Assembly: GCA_964483665.1 (NCBI GenBank)
Contig: CAZACP010000002.1
Coordinates: 33,171-97,170 of the forward strand
Length of the DNA: 64,000 nucleotides
From: an uncultured Candidatus Saccharibacteria bacterium
GTDB lineage: Bacteria > Patescibacteriota > Doudnabacteria > UBA920
Reading direction: 5' to 3'
Shown: piece after piece, positions 22,555-51,466 of the stretch
Layout of the letters: every line of letters begins with the position of its first letter
Position numbering within the stretch: position 1 is the first letter of the stretch
The notes under the pieces: generated by a model
What the model saw: the letters and a program-made list of their open reading frames with translations, nothing else
What the model was told of the DNA's origin: nothing
Databases searched by the model: none
Program-made: the position numbers and the translations under genes

Positions 22555-22707
22555 ATGCACTATATTTGTACCGGCGGATGTAAAGGAGTTTCCGAAACTC
22601 CCGGCACTTGCCAAGCTAAAGACTGCCCTTTGTATGGTCACGAGCTTCAGCCTTGCGACTGCACAGACGGAAAACATTACGGTAAGCAAGACGAAAAAGC
22701 CGAATAA
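22555..22707 (+). CDS. Small Cys-rich protein (50 aa, 6 Cys), hypothetical
   Basis: Translation is MHYICTGGCKGVSETPGTCQAKDCPLYGHELQPCDCTDGKHYGKQDEKAE. It lies between the giant GT gene and its own terminator, and was not in the ORF track because it is shorter than 60 aa. Confidence 0.35.
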   Translation: MHYICTGGCKGVSETPGTCQAKDCPLYGHELQPCDCTDGKHYGKQDEKAE

Positions 22708-23708: not shown

Positions 23709-23859
23709 CTTTCAATGGTGGAAATAGCTCTTTCTTTTTTGTTTATTTTCTGGTAATCTAAACCACAGATACGCAAATTATCATAAATCACACAGATTTA
23801 AAAAATCAAACAAATATCTGCGTTATCTGCTTTTATCTGTGTATCTGTGGACTAAAAAT

Positions 23860-34074: not shown

Positions 34075-35832
34075 ATGGATATCAAACAGCTTAATGCTGC
34101 TTTAAAAGAAAAGCGGATATTAAACGAGGAAAAAATAAAAGCCCTGGAAAAAGACAGGCTTTCTTCCAAGAACCCAAGCGCTTGGGAAGATTTTTTAGTG
34201 GAAAAAAAGCTTTTGTTAGAGGAAGATTTGCTAAAAATAAAGGCGGAAATACTTAGCGTGCCGGTGGTGGATTTAAAAAATACCCAAATTTCTCAAGATG
34301 TTTTAAATTTAGTGCCAGAGCCTATTGCTCACAGGCATAAAGTTATAAGTTTTGCTAAAACCAAAGAAGGACTTTCTTTGGCAATGGTAGACCCCGACGA
34401 CATTCAAACCAGGGATTTTATACAAAAAAAGACAGGCCTTAAAATTCAAACTTTTTTAATTGGCAAAACTAGCTTAGACTCCGGGCTTTCTAAGTATCAC
34501 TCAAGTTTGGAAAAAGAAATTAAGCATTTGTTTACCCCGGAAGGCAAGTCCTTAACCGAAGGCGCTAAAGCCGAAGGGGAGAGCGCGGACGACGGCCTTA
34601 AGAAAATGGCCGAAGAGATTCCCGTTATACGCGTGGTAGACACTTTGCTTGAATACGCTGTATTTGAAAAAGCTTCCGACATTCATATTGAGCCGCAGGA
34701 AAGCGCGGTCACGGTTAGGTACCGTATAGACGGCGTGCTGCACGACGTTATGACTTTGCCTAAGGTAATTCAGGCGGCTATTGTTGCCCGCGTGAAGGTT
34801 TTGTCTAACTTAAAAATAGACGAACACAGGCTGCCTCAGGACGGCAGGTTTAAAATTGAAAAAGAAGGCTATAAGTTCAGTTTGCGCGTTTCTACCATAC
34901 CTATTTTTGACGGGGAAAAAGTAGTTATACGTCTTTTGGACGAATCTGCCAAAGCTCAGAGCCTGGAAGATTTGGGTTTTGAAAAATCTGCTTACGAAGC
35001 TATTTCTAGGAATGTAAAAAAGCCCCACGGCATGCTTTTAATTACCGGACCTACGGGAAGCGGCAAATCTACCACGCTTTATACCTTGCTTTCAATGCTA
35101 AATACTAAGTCTGTAAATATTTCAACCATTGAAGACCCTGTCGAATATCGAATTTCCGGCACCAACCAAATGCAGGTAAACCCGAAAATCGGCTTAACTT
35201 TTGCCATGGGTTTGCGTTCGCTTTTAAGGCAAGATCCTAACATAATTATGATTGGTGAAATCCGCGACAAAGAAACCGCGGAAGAAGCGGTGCACGCGGC
35301 AATGACCGGCCACGTTGTGTTTTCCACGCTTCATACCAATACCGCTGCCGGAGCTTTGCCCAGGCTTTTAGATATTGGAGTCGAAGCTTACCTTATTGCC
35401 TCCACCGTAAATGCCGTACTTGCTCAGCGTTTGGTTAGAGTAGTCTGCAAAGACTGCAAGACCAAGTATGAGTTAGACGACGCCATGATAGACAGTCTTT
35501 CCAAAATTTTTCATTTAGACAAATTAATGCCCGTGCTTACCAGGGAAGGGGTTGTTCCGGCAAAAGCAAAAAGCATAAAAGACCTGACTTTTTATAAAGG
35601 CGCGGGCTGCGACAAATGCAATAACAGCGGCTATAAAGGCCGTATGGGCATACACGAAATTTTGGAGGTTACTCCAGAAGTGGCCGACTTAATTATGCAG
35701 CACAAGAGCGCGCAGGAAATACAGGACGAAGCCGAAAAGCACGGCATGGTTTTAATGTGGGAGGACGGTTTTATAAAAGCCTTAAAGGGCATAACCACAG
35801 TTGACGAAATACTTAGAGTGAGCAAGGAATAA
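34075..35832 (+). CDS. pilB: Type IV pilus assembly ATPase PilB (GspE family)
   Basis: The Walker A motif GPTGSGKSTT is present, along with the tetracysteine CKDC...CDKC and an N-terminal GspE-N domain. Confidence 0.85.
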   Translation: MDIKQLNAALKEKRILNEEKIKALEKDRLSSKNPSAWEDFLVEKKLLLEEDLLKIKAEILSVPVVDLKNTQISQDVLNLVPEPIAHRHKVISFAKTKEGLSLAMVDPDDIQTRDFIQKKTGLKIQTFLIGKTSLDSGLSKYHSSLEKEIKHLFTPEGKSLTEGAKAEGESADDGLKKMAEEIPVIRVVDTLLEYAVFEKASDIHIEPQESAVTVRYRIDGVLHDVMTLPKVIQAAIVARVKVLSNLKIDEHRLPQDGRFKIEKEGYKFSLRVSTIPIFDGEKVVIRLLDESAKAQSLEDLGFEKSAYEAISRNVKKPHGMLLITGPTGSGKSTTLYTLLSMLNTKSVNISTIEDPVEYRISGTNQMQVNPKIGLTFAMGLRSLLRQDPNIIMIGEIRDKETAEEAVHAAMTGHVVFSTLHTNTAAGALPRLLDIGVEAYLIASTVNAVLAQRLVRVVCKDCKTKYELDDAMIDSLSKIFHLDKLMPVLTREGVVPAKAKSIKDLTFYKGAGCDKCNNSGYKGRMGIHEILEVTPEVADLIMQHKSAQEIQDEAEKHGMVLMWEDGFIKALKGITTVDEILRVSKE

Positions 35833-35942
35833 ATAAAATGACAAAAACGACGAAAATGAGCAAAAATGACAAAAATAGACTGCAATCTGCAGCAATATTT
35901 TTGTCATTTTTTTAATTTTTGTTCATTTTTGTCATTTAACCT
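35833..35942. promoter_or_regulatory. Highly palindromic intergenic element between pilB and pilC
   Basis: aaatgacaaaaa ... ctgcaatctgcag ... tttttgtcattt. The near-perfect dyad symmetry spans about 90 nt. Confidence 0.5.
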
Positions 35943-37154
35943 ATGGAATTCTCCTACGAAGCCATTGCAAAAGACGGGCACAGGGAAACTGCTACCATAA
36001 CGGCGGCTGACTCTGCCGCAGCCGGACATATGCTAAAAGAGCAGGGGCTTATACCAGTGGAAATAAAAGAAAAAGGCGCGGGCAATAATATTCTCGATAC
36101 GTTAAGAAAGTTTTCTACTATTTCTTTGGCGGAAAAAATCGGCTTTGTTGAAAATTTGCATATTATGTATAAAGCCGGCATTGCCTTGCCAAGAGCTTTG
36201 CAGATTTTGGTCAAGCAAAGTAAAAATTTAAGGTTTAAATTGGTTTTAACCGACATTTATAACCAAGTTCAATCGGGTAAATATTTGTCTGAAGCCTTGG
36301 AATCTCATTCTGAAGTTTTTTCCAATATTTTTTTAAGCATGGTAAGAGTGGGGGAAATGTCCGGCAGTTTAGAAAAGAGTCTTGAATATTTAAGCATTCA
36401 GCTTAAAAGAGAAGCGGATCTTAAAAGCAAAACCAAAGGCGCAATGATATATCCTTCGGTTATAGTCGGCGCCATGCTAATAATCGGCGTATTAATGTCA
36501 ATTTTTGTTTTGCCAAAATTGACTTCTGTTTTTAAGGATTTTAGCACTGATCTGCCTTTTGCCACGGTTATGGTTATAAAATTTGCGGACTTTATGCAAG
36601 GTAATGCGGTTTTGGTTATTGGCATGATGGTAGCTATAGTTGTTGCCTTTGTGTATTTGCTTAAAACGTATGTGGGAAAAAAATATTTTGGGTTTTTAAT
36701 TCTTCATACTTTAGTCATTGGGGAAATAGTCAGAAAAGTCAATTTAGCCCGTTTTGCCCGCATATTAAGCTCGCTTTTAAAAAGCAGCGTGAATATGGTT
36801 CAGGCGCTGCAGGTTACCTCGGAATCTTTGGGAAATGTGGCTTACCGCGAAATTGTTGCTCAATCGGCTGAGACTGTAAAACTCGGGAAAAATTTAACCG
36901 AAAGCCTGAGCAAAGAGCCTAATTTATTTCCTATTTTGGTGGTGCAAATGCTGCAGGTGGGGGAGGAGAGCGGAACCATAGAAGAAATGCTAAACCAGTT
37001 GGCTGAACACTATGAAGACGAGGTGGATACCACTCTAAAAAACCTGTCTTCCATAATAGAACCTTTGCTGCTTTTGGTTATTGGCGGAGTGGTTGGGCTG
37101 CTTGCCATGGCATTAATTATGCCAATTTATAATATTGGTGCTAATATAAAGTAA
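35943..37154 (+). CDS. pilC: Type IV pilus inner-membrane platform protein PilC (GspF family)
   Basis: It has the two-repeat GspF architecture and 3 TM segments. Confidence 0.8.
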   Translation: MEFSYEAIAKDGHRETATITAADSAAAGHMLKEQGLIPVEIKEKGAGNNILDTLRKFSTISLAEKIGFVENLHIMYKAGIALPRALQILVKQSKNLRFKLVLTDIYNQVQSGKYLSEALESHSEVFSNIFLSMVRVGEMSGSLEKSLEYLSIQLKREADLKSKTKGAMIYPSVIVGAMLIIGVLMSIFVLPKLTSVFKDFSTDLPFATVMVIKFADFMQGNAVLVIGMMVAIVVAFVYLLKTYVGKKYFGFLILHTLVIGEIVRKVNLARFARILSSLLKSSVNMVQALQVTSESLGNVAYREIVAQSAETVKLGKNLTESLSKEPNLFPILVVQMLQVGEESGTIEEMLNQLAEHYEDEVDTTLKNLSSIIEPLLLLVIGGVVGLLAMALIMPIYNIGANIK

Positions 37155-37178
37155 TACTACAGAGCTGTTGTTTTTCCG

Positions 37179-37295
37179 CACTACAGATGCCTACAGAAAT
37201 AAATTTATACATAAACCAAGCAATATAATTTTAAGAAATAAATATTATTAACTTCTTTAACTTTTAAATAGTAATTCTGTAGGCATTTGTAGTTT
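37179..37295. repeat. Inverted-repeat pair CTACAGATGCCTACAGAA / TTCTGTAGGCATTTGTAG flanking a 76-bp AT-rich core (copy A)
   Basis: Seen directly. The arms lie at 37179-37198 and 37275-37295. Confidence 0.7.
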
Positions 37296-37318
37296 ATCTT
37301 ATTCGTAGCTCAGTAGTT

Positions 37319-38371
37319 ATGTTTAATTTTTCTAAAACTTTAAGTTCCATAGGCCTGGACATAAGCTCGGGCAGCATCAAGCTAATGCAGGTAAAAAAAG
37401 ACGGCAAAAATTTTGTTGTTAAAGCTTTTTCCCGCGCTTCTTTGCCTAAAGGCGCTGTAATTAACGACCTTGTGGCAGACCAAAAAACTTTTGGTTTTTT
37501 AATTAAGCAGGCTCTAGACAAGCCGCAGTTTGGCAGGTTTGATACCCAATATGTAACAGTTTCTTTACCCGAGGCTAAATCTTTTATTCGGGTAATACAA
37601 ATACCTAAAATGTCCGACCTGGAAAGCGAATCGGCTGTGCCTTACGAAGCGGAGAGCTTTATACCTATGCCTATTGACCAGGTCTATTTGGACTGGCAAA
37701 AGGTAGGCGAGACTTCGGAAAAAAACAACATATTAATTATTGCTAGCCCGAAAGAGTATGTTGAAAAATATTTGGAACTAATTGACTTAAGCGGTCTTAA
37801 GCCGACAGCGCTTGAGGCTGAATCGCAAAGTTTGTGCAGAAGCCTAATTGGTTGGAAGTCGGAGGAGACCTCGTTTATTGCCGATATAGACGCAAGTCGG
37901 AGCAATTTGGTTATGATAGAAGCGGGAAATTTGCAGTTTTCTTCTACTGTGCCTATAGCCGGGGGAGCCTTTACCGAGAGCTTGGCTCGGTCTTTGGGCG
38001 TTGCTTCGGCAAAAGCCGAAGAAATAAAAAAGAAAGTCGGGCTTTTAAACACCGCCGAGTACCCGAACATTAAAATTTCTTTAGCGCCGATTTTAAATAA
38101 TTTAACTGCCGAAATTAAAAATGTTTTAAAATTTCACTCGGAAAGGTCTGAAAAACCGGTTGAAAAAGTTATATTGGCCGGAGGCGGCGCAAAGTTAAAG
38201 GGGATGATAGATTTAATGCAGAATGATTTTGCTTCGGAAGGCAATATTAAAGTGGAACTTGGTAATCCGTGGAGGAATTTAAGCGAACTTAAATCCCCGC
38301 CAATTTTTGGCGAGGAGGCCTTAAGCTGGAGCACGGCGATTGGCCTTGCTATAAGAAATTATGAAGAGTAG
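37319..38371 (+). CDS. pilM: Type IV pilus assembly protein PilM (actin-like ATPase fold)
   Basis: The motif SIGLDISSGSIKLMQV is present and the protein is 350 aa. Confidence 0.7.
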   Translation: MFNFSKTLSSIGLDISSGSIKLMQVKKDGKNFVVKAFSRASLPKGAVINDLVADQKTFGFLIKQALDKPQFGRFDTQYVTVSLPEAKSFIRVIQIPKMSDLESESAVPYEAESFIPMPIDQVYLDWQKVGETSEKNNILIIASPKEYVEKYLELIDLSGLKPTALEAESQSLCRSLIGWKSEETSFIADIDASRSNLVMIEAGNLQFSSTVPIAGGAFTESLARSLGVASAKAEEIKKKVGLLNTAEYPNIKISLAPILNNLTAEIKNVLKFHSERSEKPVEKVILAGGGAKLKGMIDLMQNDFASEGNIKVELGNPWRNLSELKSPPIFGEEALSWSTAIGLAIRNYEE

Positions 38372-38396
38372 TCTACAGAATCATTAAGCATATTGC

Positions 38397-38514
38397 ACCA
38401 CAGATGCCTACAGAATCTAACTAATAAAATTTTCTTTATGTTAATATCTTTAGTAATAAAAATATTAAATTTATTCCATATAAAAATATAAAAAATCTGT
38501 AGGTATCTGTAGTG
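38397..38514. repeat. Inverted-repeat pair CCACAGATGCCTACAGAATC / AATCTGTAGGTATCTGTAG flanking a 75-bp AT-rich core (copy B)
   Basis: Seen directly. It has the same length class (118 bp) as copy A. Confidence 0.7.
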
Positions 38515-38541
38515 TTTTTAATCCGTAGTTTATGTAGTTTT

Positions 38542-39093
38542 ATGAAATTAATTAACCTGTTACCAAAAACCAGACAAGAGGAGCTGCGCTACGAGCGAGT
38601 TTTGCAGCGTTTTTTGAAAATCTTTTGGTTTTCATTGAGTAGCTTTATAGTTGTTATAGGCCTTCAGCTTGGGGCAAAAATTTATTTGCAGGGTCAAGCT
38701 GTGCGGGTTTCCGCTGAAATTCAGAATTTAAAAAATCAGGTTAGCAAGAGCGAAAACGAGCAGATAAAAAAGAAAATAACCGCTCTAAATAATTACATTG
38801 CGGATTATAAGAATCTATCCACTGTGCCTAAATGGTCCAAAGCACTGCTGGCTTTTTCTGCTTTGCCCCCTGAAGAAGTTGCTATTACTTCGCTCAATTT
38901 AGACGTAAAAACTAAGACAGTTAAAATACTTGGTTTTGCGCCGACCAGAGAAAAAGTTATAGAGTTTTATAACAGTATTAAAGCCGATGAGAAGGAATTT
39001 ACCGGGGTAGACTACCCGTTAGAGAACGTGGCTAAGCCCACGGACAACAATTTTCATTTTACTTTTTTTATTAAAGACGAGTTAATTCAATAG
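38542..39093 (+). CDS. pilN: PilN-like pilus assembly protein (single N-terminal TM)
   Basis: MKLINLLPK is a typical PilN start, followed by one TM segment and a coiled coil. The internal ATG was preferred over the track start 38512. Confidence 0.5.
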   Translation: MKLINLLPKTRQEELRYERVLQRFLKIFWFSLSSFIVVIGLQLGAKIYLQGQAVRVSAEIQNLKNQVSKSENEQIKKKITALNNYIADYKNLSTVPKWSKALLAFSALPPEEVAITSLNLDVKTKTVKILGFAPTREKVIEFYNSIKADEKEFTGVDYPLENVAKPTDNNFHFTFFIKDELIQ

Positions 39094-39095
39094 GC

Positions 39096-39165
39096 TACGA
39101 AAGTACTAAACATACGAAAATACTAAATCAAACTTTCGTACTTTAGTAAATTTTCGTACTTTAGC
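39096..39165. repeat. Clustered short repeats upstream of the pilO-like gene
   Basis: tacgaaa[g/a]tactaaa occurs twice at 39096-39127. tttcgtactttag occurs twice at 39134-39165. Both sets share a GTAC core. Confidence 0.6.
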
Positions 39166-39173
39166 AGCCATTT

Positions 39174-39728
39174 ATGAAGCCAATGTCAGCGAAAAATAAA
39201 ATAGTTATTGCCGTAGTTTTGTGGCTGGTGGTTTCGGCTGCCATGATTATGTATGGCTTTAATATATTTTCGGGCAGCAATCAGAAAATGCTTTTTCAAA
39301 TCCAGGAGTCTAAAAAAGAACTTGCTGCTTTGCAGGAAGAAAAAAACAGTTACACGCAGGCCCAAAAAGACCTGGAACAGATGCAAAAAAAAGACATTCA
39401 GCCCTCAGATTTTTTTAGTAAAGATATTACTTTGGTCGAAGAACTGAAAATTTTAGAAGATTTGCAGGAAAGCTTACAAATTAAACTCACGGTTTCGGGA
39501 GTTAGCGGCACTGCCGGAACTGCCCCAAAAGCAAAAACTCAAAGCGACATTGTGGTTGTGCCCTATGCAATTTCTGCTTCGGGTCCGTTTGAAAATATTT
39601 TAAAATTGGTTCAGACTTTGGAGAATTTGCCCTTTATAACCAACATCGGTTCTTTGGCAGTGAGCACGGGTGAAAAGGGAAGTGTAAATTTTTCCACCAG
39701 CGCAAATTTCTATTTAAGAAGAAACTAA
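39174..39728 (+). CDS. PilO-like pilus assembly protein (N-terminal TM, coiled coil)
   Basis: Topology and operon position support the call. There is no strong motif. Confidence 0.4.
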   Translation: MKPMSAKNKIVIAVVLWLVVSAAMIMYGFNIFSGSNQKMLFQIQESKKELAALQEEKNSYTQAQKDLEQMQKKDIQPSDFFSKDITLVEELKILEDLQESLQIKLTVSGVSGTAGTAPKAKTQSDIVVVPYAISASGPFENILKLVQTLENLPFITNIGSLAVSTGEKGSVNFSTSANFYLRRN

Positions 39729-39750
39729 AATAATTTACCAACTACGAATC

Positions 39751-39818
39751 TGTACTAATATACTAATTTGTCACAACTTAATTAAATTATTAGTTACGGG
39801 TATTAGTATATTAGTATC
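39751..39818. repeat. 16-bp inverted repeat tactaatatactaat flanking a 30-bp spacer
   Basis: Arms tgtactaatatactaattt (39751-39769) and gtattagtatattagtatc (39800-39818). Confidence 0.6.
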
Positions 39819-39838
39819 AATTAGTATTTAGTAAAGAT

Positions 39839-40135
39839 ATGTCTAATATTTCTATAGGTATAAAAAATTTTACGGCCAAAATATTGTCTATAAAAAATAA
39901 TTTTTCAATATTTTTTTACATTGGTTTGGCCATACTACTTTTTTTTGAATTTTTAGTTTTGCAAGATTTGCTGAAAGTTATTCTTGAATCCGCCAAGGAC
40001 CAGTTACCCAGCCATTCGGTGCAGAGAGTAAGAATTAATTTTGCCGATTACGATCAAAATTTAAAAAAAGTTGAAGACGCCCAGAATTTTGAGGCAGACA
40101 TAAGTCCGCCCCAAAACCCTTTTAAGAGCAAATAA
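39839..40135 (+). CDS. Small membrane protein, last gene of the pilus operon (hypothetical)
   Basis: 98 aa with one TM segment. Confidence 0.3.
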   Translation: MSNISIGIKNFTAKILSIKNNFSIFFYIGLAILLFFEFLVLQDLLKVILESAKDQLPSHSVQRVRINFADYDQNLKKVEDAQNFEADISPPQNPFKSK

Positions 40136-40158
40136 AGCTACAGAATGTACAGTTAAAT

Positions 40159-40210
40159 ACACTACAGATGCCTACAGAACAAGGAGTTTTGGGGGTCATT
40201 TGTAGTTTTT
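40159..40210. repeat. Third copy of the CTACAGATGCCTACAGAA motif with a degenerate partner TCATTTGTAGTTTTT
   Basis: acactacagatgcctacagaac lies at 40159-40180. The partial arm lies at 40197-40210. Confidence 0.55.
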
Positions 40211-40302
40211 AAATTGTGGACATTTGGCCATGTTTTCCAGTATAATATAATACAACCCTGAACCCGTAGCTCATTTGGATACCCGCTCGACCCTTACAAC
40301 TA

Positions 40303-40379
40303 GGCTCCGTAGCTCATTTGGATAGAGCGCCTGGCTTCGAACCAGGAGGTAGTAGGTTCAAATCCTACCGGAGTCACCA
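40303..40379 (+). tRNA. tRNA-Arg (anticodon UCG)
   Basis: Manual cloverleaf. Acceptor ggctccg/cggagtc (one G-U pair). D-arm gctc-atttggata-gagc. Anticodon stem cctgg/ccagg with loop cttcgaa. T-arm gtagg-ttcaaat-cctac. Discriminator A and an encoded CCA. Confidence 0.75.
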
Positions 40380-40403
40380 CGAATCATTTTTGCGAGTCAG
40401 GCG

Positions 40404-40500
40404 GGTGGGAAGCGCCTGGCTTCGAACCAGGAGGTAGTAGAGCCTGTCCTGAGCGAAGTCGAAGGATTCGAATTCTACCGGGTGCGCCATTGAAAAATAT
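40404..40500 (+). other. tRNA-derived fragment / pseudo-tRNA
   Basis: A 28-nt exact copy of the tRNA-Arg anticodon arm (40413-40440) sits in a context that does not fold as a cloverleaf. A second 18-nt copy of the D-arm lies at 40264-40281, just 5' of the tRNA. Confidence 0.5.
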
Positions 40501-42984: not shown

Positions 42985-43327
42985 GCTAGCTTTAAAAACT
43001 CCCTTGCTATCTGCCCGCCAAAGTTATTCCAAAATACCTAATAGGACAAATAACACAGATAAAATACGTCTAGAGAGTATTTAATCTGTGGGATCAAGTG
43101 GTATTAGTGAATTTATGGTTAAAAACCTTGGCAGGCAGTTTACCCAGCACCTTTCTTTGTGAACTTAAACTTCCCAGGAATTAAATCTCAATAATTATTT
43201 TGGAATAATAGTTTAGGAGATTTTGAAAGGTGCTGGGTTTAGCAGGGGAGTTTTTGTTTGTTTTTTATTTAAATCCCAGCCAGCATTAGGGGGGATTTTT
43301 TGGTATAATTATTCCAAGGAGGGCCTA

Positions 43328-51278: not shown

Positions 51279-51466
51279 ATTTATACTGATTAACACTGAT
51301 TTTTACGGAAGGACACGGATTTAGTACAATCGTTGTAACTTTATTTCCGTGTAAATCTGTTTTTATTAATCTGTGTAGGTGTGTTTTTATTAATTCAACC
51401 TGCTAATAATACCAAAAATTTCATAAAAAGTCAATTATCTGATATAATATATTTATAATCAGTCGT

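Follow-up and report, generated by a model that had tools for sequence, protein, structure and literature searches.

Miniature inverted-repeat transposable elements (MITEs), such as the Correia elements of Neisseria and the pneumococcal RUP elements, are short, non-coding intergenic sequences bounded by inverted repeats; they are co-transcribed, form hairpins and have their ends in common with larger, gene-carrying elements. Repetitive extragenic palindromes (REPs) of Enterobacteria and Pseudomonas are imperfect palindromes preceded by GT[AG]G, and the RAYT protein is a Y1 HUH enzyme. Intervening sequences of 23S rRNA can contain small open reading frames (ORFs; 23S_rRNA_IVP, GxxExxY). ORFs of the 23S_rRNA_IVP type occur in rRNA insertions of the Candidate Phyla Radiation (PMC11270868). 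Here we describe three elements built from the heptamer CTACAGA in the pilus operon of an uncultured Candidatus Saccharibacteria bacterium (contig CAZACP010000002.1; the 64,000-nucleotide stretch analysed is called the window). The elements belong to a dispersed family, and the units at their ends also flank GxxExxY genes. We consider it rather probable that these hairpin-forming elements derive from a family of small GxxExxY cassettes embedded in operons and are gene-less versions of them.

The 17-18-nt arm CTACAGAtgcCTACAGA occurs in the window as two inverted pairs and one partial pair. Five matches to the 18-mer CTACAGATGCCTACAGAA with 0-2 mismatches were found at 37181(+), 37275(-), 38398(+), 38495(-) and 40162(+), compared with 0.01 expected in 64 kb, which bears out the three copies with recurrent inverted-repeat arms reported by a first-pass annotation of the sequence. 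The arm is a direct repeat of CTACAGA with a period of 10 bp, and 11 of the 13 CTACAGA heptamers in the window (2.65 expected) lie inside the three elements. A DNA uptake sequence was rejected because of this clustered rather than dispersed distribution. An inverted-repeat search gave arms that are 91% complementary with 70 nt between them. The unit was defined by orienting 82 arm-like matches (up to 4 mismatches; window and related loci). Upstream of the arms there is a further CTACAGA-like heptamer, often two. In most of the roughly 30 units measured, the distance from the start of the first outer heptamer to the arm is 24-26 nt. Therefore, the unit is about 41 nt long, and each arm is its inner part, with heptamers at positions 1, (9), 25 and 35. 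Every unit ends in GTAG, and the arm itself is not self-complementary.

The extra half-sites which the first-pass annotation had seen upstream of each copy are present 24-25 nt before the left arms (37157, 38373 and 40138). It had overlooked that the right arms of copies 1 and 2 are each followed by a further two half-sites (37302-37316 and 38522-38537), and had also missed the right arm of copy 3, which is a single heptamer at 40199-40205 followed by TTTTT. Copies 1 and 2 (W1 and W2) consist of two ~41-nt units face to face, the outer heptamer beginning 1-2 nt past the upstream stop codon and the last heptamer past the right arm ending 2-4 nt before the next ATG (Table 1). The flanking operon encodes PilB (T2SSE), PilC (T2SSF, 35943-37154), PilM (37319-38371), PilN (weak match), PilO and a 98-aa ORF (39839-40135), and copy 3 (W3) is followed by a TGGACA-18-TATAAT promoter and by tRNA-Arg and tRNA-Lys; the earlier placement between pilC and pilM, between pilM and pilN, and between the last operon gene and a tRNA promoter matches these gene coordinates. 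As also claimed before, the two long cores are AT-rich (10-13% GC) and unrelated in sequence (mutual alignment z -1.1 and 0.5), and the copies therefore did not arise by simple local duplication, a possibility that the annotation had raised. Internal sequence is not shared among the copies, no ORF lies inside W1-W3, and neither core has a promoter match on the + strand, contrary to the suggestion that the cores could contain promoters.

Seven contigs of the window's own species carry copies 1 and 2 identical throughout, and a copy 3 with a strongly different loop in which the heptamers are kept. Comparison of the window with the near-identical contigs L001, L002, L004 and L005 revealed a divergent patch of ~235 bp at 40027-40261, with 9 single-nucleotide polymorphisms (SNPs) in the last ORF and 14 differences within 24 nt of the copy 3 loop. 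The patch looks like a recombination tract centred on the copy 3 hairpin.

The family extends beyond the window. A degenerate arm pattern was scanned over 185,579 species genomes, for which we estimate ~550 chance matches; 119 matches were returned, most of them expected by chance, and 34 came from about 20 metagenome-assembled genomes (MAGs) of Patescibacteria. In these MAGs some units stand alone, and others form inverted pairs with 0-50-nt loops or pairs separated by 390-490 nt. Of 65 units, 25 have a start codon within 15 nt of the outer end, most often at a distance of 4 nt, that belongs to an ORF of 70 aa or more, and 15 have a gene stop codon at the outer end (0-2 nt away in 13). Some lone units lie between a stop codon and an intrinsic terminator. 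The adjoining genes are mutually unrelated and include rplK, pgk, topA and lysS (identified by reading N-terminal sequences) as well as a histidine kinase gene (Pfam). A phage vector was considered and rejected: all 53 matches in viral contigs are single arms, about the chance level by a rough estimate, and only one has a nearby outer heptamer.

Some of these MAGs showed further features. A common conserved non-coding stretch lies beside CTACAGA units in L094 (3030-3495) and L067 (6490-6700), with the motifs AAAACTCGGGCT.ACCCGAGTGAAA and CCAACTGTCATTGGA, and L094 also has four ATCCGCGT repeats. Rfam gave no match on this stretch, which could be a new RNA gene. The lysS leader contains a GC-rich palindrome, CCTGCCTGCCGGCAGGCAGG, that forms a tight hairpin in L031 (7300-7330) and L109 (6555-6575) and is split by ~110 AT-rich nt in L080 (680-790), a loop expansion like that of window copies 1 and 2. 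The LysS proteins of L031 and L080, both titled Candidatus Saccharibacteria, are 84-90% identical to that of L109, titled Doudnabacteria, and the Saccharibacteria labels of those co-assembly MAGs are probably wrong.

GxxExxY genes were found between CTACAGA units in three loci, L212, L033 and L015, with CTACAGAtgcCTACAGA arms in the first two and a longer variant-heptamer array in L015. The arms of L033 enclose a 393-bp insert whose ORF matches PF13366 PDDEXK_3 (5e-20) and TIGR04256 GxxExxY (3e-19). L015 shows the same arrangement, and its protein is assigned to the family by 57% identity to the L033 protein. The L212 protein (P0127) is 79% identical to the L033 protein and has a precomputed PF13366 hit; its cassette, with perfect units, is directly preceded by a TAG stop and followed after 11 nt by the ATG of a histidine kinase gene, and L212 and the window's strains belong to one JGI sample series. 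Two other loci (L077 and L125) have their GxxExxY genes enclosed by inverted arrays built from other units.

A metagenome scan with an alignment of four GxxExxY proteins returned 80 loci, 68 of them with enough flanking sequence. A score of 13 or more for the best flank-to-flank inverted repeat was reached by 82% of the 68 loci (median 17.2). For 15 other ORFs in those loci, used as a control, the median is 8.0 and the maximum 11 (p = 7e-9), below that score in every case. The flanking arrays are composed of tandem 8-10-nt units with the consensus (A/C)T(A/G)C-N-AAT. Genes beside the GxxExxY gene are co-oriented with it in 45/47 and 41/42 cases, with gaps of ~74 nt on each side. In addition, L133, L135 and L137 carry GxxExxY cassettes with TACAAAT/TACGAAT arrays at the pilB-pilC junction of orthologous operons (PilB 74-82% and PilC 59-60% identical). 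The GxxExxY genes of two larger genomes that were checked, L222 and L223 (4.5 and 2.8 Mb), likewise lie between inverted arrays of units. Of the loci encoding a protein with 59% or more identity to the L033 protein, 5/7 have at least two CTACARA units, compared with 7/63 others. W1-W3 fit the cassette ends thus delineated, having (A/C)T(A/G)C-N-(A/G)A(T) units, two opposed arrays and outer ends at gene boundaries. Their arrays hold no ORF and a tblastn search for a GxxExxY gene in the 64-kb window found none; therefore, the window copies are read as gene-less derivatives.

An alignment of 49 GxxExxY homologues revealed invariant G, E, D, E-x-K and Q-x-x-x-Y, and the AlphaFold2 model has a pLDDT of 91.6; the family has a PD-(D/E)XK nuclease fold. 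Therefore, the protein appears to be a minimal, intact nuclease of the RecB/Cas4 type, and from its sequence it looks active. A sequence search of solved structures gave no usable match. No account of flanking inverted tandem-repeat arrays or of gene-less derivatives was found in the literature searched on GxxExxY, PDDEXK_3 and Saccharibacteria repeats, and PF13366 (PDDEXK_3) is listed with function unknown (PMC3424549).

The history of the junctions can be followed in orthologous pilus operons. The best named relatives of the window's PilM belong to Candidatus Doudnabacteria (72% identity). In the window, the pilC-pilM (164 nt) and pilM-pilN (~170 nt) junctions hold CTACAGA elements and the pilN-pilO junction (80 nt) holds a TACGAAA-type palindrome. 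In L129 (PilM 85% identical) the pilC-pilM junction of 174 nt contains the same CTACAGA element, with perfect heptamers, changed 3-nt spacers and a core that is recognisably homologous to that of W1 (z 2.8) and is the only one aligning with it; the contig ends 38 nt past pilM, a stretch with no CTACAGA. Five more distant relatives have mostly short gaps. At pilC-pilM, pilM-pilN and pilN-pilO these measure 72, 1 and 16 nt in L126 (PilM 72%), 31, 24 and 4 nt in L131 (72%), and 5, 0 and a called 86 nt, the start being uncertain, in L130 (73%). L128 (73%) has 36 nt at pilC-pilM and 8 nt at pilM-pilN, and L127 (62%) has 185 nt with an ATGACA-type palindrome, followed by 13 and 6 nt. No CTACAGA was found at the pilC-pilM junctions of L126, L128, L130 and L131, and a counterpart of copy 3 is absent from L126. 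The element is present in L129 and not in the five more distant relatives, and is therefore a lineage-specific insertion. The comparison shows that, in this lineage, the CTACAGA elements entered pilus-operon junctions that had been tight before.

Other junctions of the relatives hold different unit types, a TACGAAA/TACTAAA palindrome at pilB-pilC of L126 and CAGTT arrays at pilB-pilC of L130, so the occupancy of the junctions turns over. The remaining pil junctions of the window carry variant units as well (GACAAAA, TACGAAA/TACTAAA and TACGAAT/TACTAAT), in a build like that of the CTACAGA elements. The unit type of the window's pilN-pilO junction recurs at pilB-pilC of L126 and around many GxxExxY genes, and the units at 39734-39835 fit the cassette-flank consensus.

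In the explanation that we favour, a full cassette begins with a ~41-nt tandem-heptamer end unit, its outer end right after the upstream stop codon. The middle is occupied by the gene for a GxxExxY nuclease of ~125 aa (PD-(D/E)XK, Cas4/RecB-like), co-oriented with the operon, and the inverted end unit stops ~4 nt before the next start codon. The window copies retain both end units, with only a fast-evolving AT-rich loop of 20-80 nt between them. The heptamers would be duplex-DNA recognition sites of the cognate nuclease, which would mediate spread or maintenance. The elements would be co-transcribed with the operon and, upon folding back, put the stop codon and the next start codon together; coupling would survive, so that insertions of such a shape would be tolerated at junctions. 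Copy 3, with its hairpin and U5, would also act as the operon terminator. We infer in this way the derivation of the window copies from GxxExxY cassettes, and likewise the movement of the cassettes and its mode. A broader proposal is tentative, and we regard it as possible rather than probable: that GxxExxY genes encode the nuclease of unrecognised, operon-embedded selfish cassettes with inverted heptamer arrays, each clade recognising its own unit, whose gene-less derivatives colonise operon junctions of Patescibacteria.

Several points weigh against the derivation from GxxExxY cassettes. No target-site duplication was found between filled and empty pilC-pilM and pilM-pilN junctions (flanks TA / TT and T / TTTT), and no insertion event was caught between strains, W1 and W2 being identical in the seven strain contigs. 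The window, as said, has no GxxExxY gene by tblastn, and we know of no lone PD-(D/E)XK nuclease that acts as a transposase. In L047, what lies between the CTACAGA units ahead of rplK is a 95-aa ORF (295-582) that matches nothing in Pfam or NCBIfam; therefore, the arms can enclose cargo other than the GxxExxY gene, and in L094 they enclose a non-coding stretch of 486 nt. The agreement of unit type with protein clade could stem from host phylogeny. Finally, there are six elements within the 4.4-kb pilus operon, which may point to a host function; such crowding may reflect local spread or host benefit.

The order of events might also be the reverse, with heptamer-array palindromes being host intergenic features whose loops were later invaded by small selfish ORFs (GxxExxY and others), in the manner of the ORFs of 23S rRNA intervening sequences. 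Varied cargo, namely the GxxExxY gene, the unrelated 95-aa ORF of L047 and the non-coding DNA of L094, is consistent with such an order. So are the ~22 CTACAGA pairs without an ORF, compared with 3-4 enclosing one, and the lysS-leader palindrome that is tight in L031 and L109 and split in L080. However, arrays accompany nearly every GxxExxY gene and the type of unit follows the clade of the protein, so recognition of the arrays by the protein would still be required, and the hairpins themselves are missing from the orthologous junctions of relatives. We consider hairpins that preceded the genes unlikely.

Selection for messenger structure is a further explanation. The RNA of copy 1 folds with -43 kcal/mol (z -5.8), its outer helix reaching from 2 nt past the stop codon to 2 nt before the AUG, so that the feet of the helix stand at the stop and start codons; copy 2 gives -36.3 kcal/mol (z -4.9) and copy 3 -22.3 kcal/mol (z -3.8). 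Such stem-loops could be selected for processing, stability or translational coupling of the pilus genes, whatever their origin. All five pil junctions carry palindromes, compared with almost none in the other intergenic stretches of more than 40 nt in the window, and the junctions inspected are without a GGAG-type Shine-Dalgarno sequence. Relatives, however, manage with junctions of 0-24 nt, lone units stand where no hairpin can form, and the arms do not maintain pairing at their variable positions. In the cassette flanks, 49% of aligned units differ between the two arms at the N position, as against at most 9% at conserved positions. Among 22 CTACAGA pairs, the spacer accounts for 18 mismatches and the two purine positions for 14, whereas CTAC and the final A are nearly invariant. 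Mismatches compatible with G.U pairing number 11 on one strand and 14 on the other, and 13 are compatible on neither. RNA covariation was rejected because of this absence of a strand-consistent G.U bias. The motif is conserved, not the base pairing, and the pattern of mismatches fits recognition of each unit on duplex DNA, not selection for an RNA helix. Functional mRNA structures are therefore an improbable explanation of the arrays.

The copy 3 hairpin is directly followed by UUUUU and then by the tRNA promoter. It was not listed by the terminator scan because its loop exceeds 8 nt, and it probably doubles as the operon terminator. Rfam reported tRNAs only in the window and nine related loci, lysS leaders included.

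The first-pass annotation had offered, as its second reading, paired operators that loop out internal promoters. Direct heptamer repeats with a 10-bp period, and a motif conserved rather than its pairing, are typical of protein-binding sites and would suit a transcription factor such as an OmpR/PhoB-type dimer acting on promoters in the AT-rich cores. This reading fails on several grounds: the sites are present in L129 only and absent from L126, L127, L128, L130 and L131, the units adjoin rplK, pgk, topA, lysS, a histidine kinase gene, gene 3' ends and gaps between stop codon and terminator, the loops range from 0 to 490 nt, and the cores offer no + strand promoter. We regard it as very improbable. 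A REP/REPIN-type system mobilised by a RAYT (Y1 HUH) transposase is scarcely credible: the extragenic inverted doublets of ~110-120 bp and the GTAG at the end of every unit, reportedly the tetranucleotide of REPs, recall it, but the arms are direct heptamer repeats rather than self-complementary REPs, and the gene between them is PD-(D/E)XK (PDDEXK_3), no other family recurring there, with no Y1_Tnp search made across all loci.

Further candidates were set aside. The heptamers could be taken as an alternative promoter of leaderless mRNAs, as the 24-25-nt spacing and the heptamer-N4-ATG distance resemble a -35/-10 geometry; this was rejected because the unit faces stop codons in 15/65 cases, where it would fire antisense, and because the genome has normal TATAAT promoters. 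An invertible promoter switch was rejected, since 0-30-nt loops cannot invert. The likeness of the right flank to a tRNA D-arm (cgtagctcagt) and that of some units to the streptococcal cin-box (TACGAATA) were both taken as coincidences of the heptamer consensus.

Outside the pilus operon, the first-pass annotation had pointed to related half-sites in three places of the window. The array before the C-methyltransferase gene was recovered by the inverted-repeat search, and a GxxExxY gene in L223 is flanked by CCACAGAC-type arrays. The other two were confirmed by reading the sequence only: a short hairpin, and inverted CACGGAT/CCGTG motifs around 51300-51380. The arrays and the gene calls overlap, as the longest-ORF starts GTG 38512 (PilN) and GTG 23839 (C-methyltransferase) fall within repeat arms; translation more likely begins at ATG 38542 and ATG 23860, immediately beyond the arrays. 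The length of PilN is inconsistent in public gene calls (193 vs 183 aa).

Table 1. Positions of the CTACAGA elements and of other heptamer arrays in the window
Feature	Position	Strand	Details
Copy 1 (W1)	37157..37316	+	pilC-pilM junction
Copy 1, parts			outer heptamer 37157-37163; left arm 37181-37197; AT-rich core 37199-37274; right arm 37276-37292
Copy 1, right outer heptamers			TTCGTAG 37302-37308; TCAGTAG 37310-37316; pilM ATG 37319
Copy 2 (W2)	38373..38537	+	pilM-pilN junction
Copy 2, parts			outer heptamer 38373-38379; left arm 38398-38414; core 38415-38494; right arm 38496-38512
Copy 2, right outer heptamers			TCCGTAG 38522-38528; TATGTAG 38531-38537; likely pilN ATG 38542
Copy 3 (W3)	40138..40210	+	downstream of last operon ORF
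Copy 3, parts			outer heptamer 40138-40144; left arm 40162-40178; 20-nt loop; right heptamer TTTGTAG 40199-40205; T5 40206-40210
pilB-pilC palindrome	35829..35944	+	about four tandem GAC(A/G)AAA-type units per arm; 49-nt arms (inverted-repeat search)
pilN-pilO palindrome	39094..39173	+	(TACGAAA-GTACTAAA) twice, then inverted copy
Palindrome between pilO and the 98-aa ORF	39734..39835	+	CTACGAAT / TACTAAT units
Inverted CACAGAT/CGCAAAT-type array	23763..23850	+	35-nt inverted repeat; ends 9 nt before C-methyltransferase ATG 23860
Short hairpin	43053..43096	+	one CACAGAT / ATCTGTG unit per arm; 3' of 350-aa ORF; read by eye

Two other features of the window were observed. The tRNA-Arg(TCG) gene at 40303-40379 is partly duplicated within 40262-40490, with an 18-nt 5' piece upstream (40264-40281) and a 29-nt anticodon-arm piece downstream (40412-40440), the latter in a tRNA-like remnant ending ...GGGTGCGCCA. 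Neither fragment is called by ARAGORN or Rfam, and they may be scars of integration at that tRNA. An unlisted cysteine-rich ORF of 50 aa (MHYICTGGCKGVSETPGTCQAKDCPLYGHELQPCDCTDGKHYGKQDEKAE) lies at 22555-22707; it occupies part of a 274-nt 'intergenic' gap, and a terminator-like hairpin comes after it.

If the derivation from GxxExxY cassettes is correct, the intergenic heptamer palindromes of this genome are one repeat superfamily and not regulatory sites, and knowing them would safeguard against false regulon and promoter calls in genomes of candidate phyla. It would also place the widespread GxxExxY nucleases, a family of unknown function, in a genomic context for the first time and supply a testable substrate for them, and it suggests how a tightly coupled operon may tolerate insertion, through a fold-back that keeps stop and start codons adjacent.

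The elements are non-autonomous palindromic intergenic repeats with an unusual end structure and an unusual candidate partner gene. Similar to the Correia and RUP elements, they have terminal inverted repeats bounding short non-coding DNA, and the MITE-like element of 18-bp repeats proposed by the first-pass annotation stands in part: they are insertions bounded by inverted repeats, absent from orthologous junctions of relatives, with ends common to gene-carrying cassettes. They differ from MITEs in their ends, which are modular ~41-nt tandem-heptamer units rather than 18-bp repeats, in their unrelated cores and in showing no target-site duplication, and their partner is a ~125-aa PD-(D/E)XK nuclease, no known transposase, instead of a DDE transposase. 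With the REP/REPIN-RAYT systems they have in common an extragenic location, an occurrence as single units or inverted doublets of ~100-120 bp, the GTAG motif and one repeat-flanked gene of nuclease type. However, the arms here are direct repeats, the associated gene is Cas4/RecB-like, and the copy number per genome is apparently lower. The intervening sequences of 23S rRNA likewise place a small ORF in the loop of a long stem within a host transcript. The present elements differ in that they lie in transcripts of protein-coding operons, have stems made of tandem-repeat arrays and in most copies lack an ORF.

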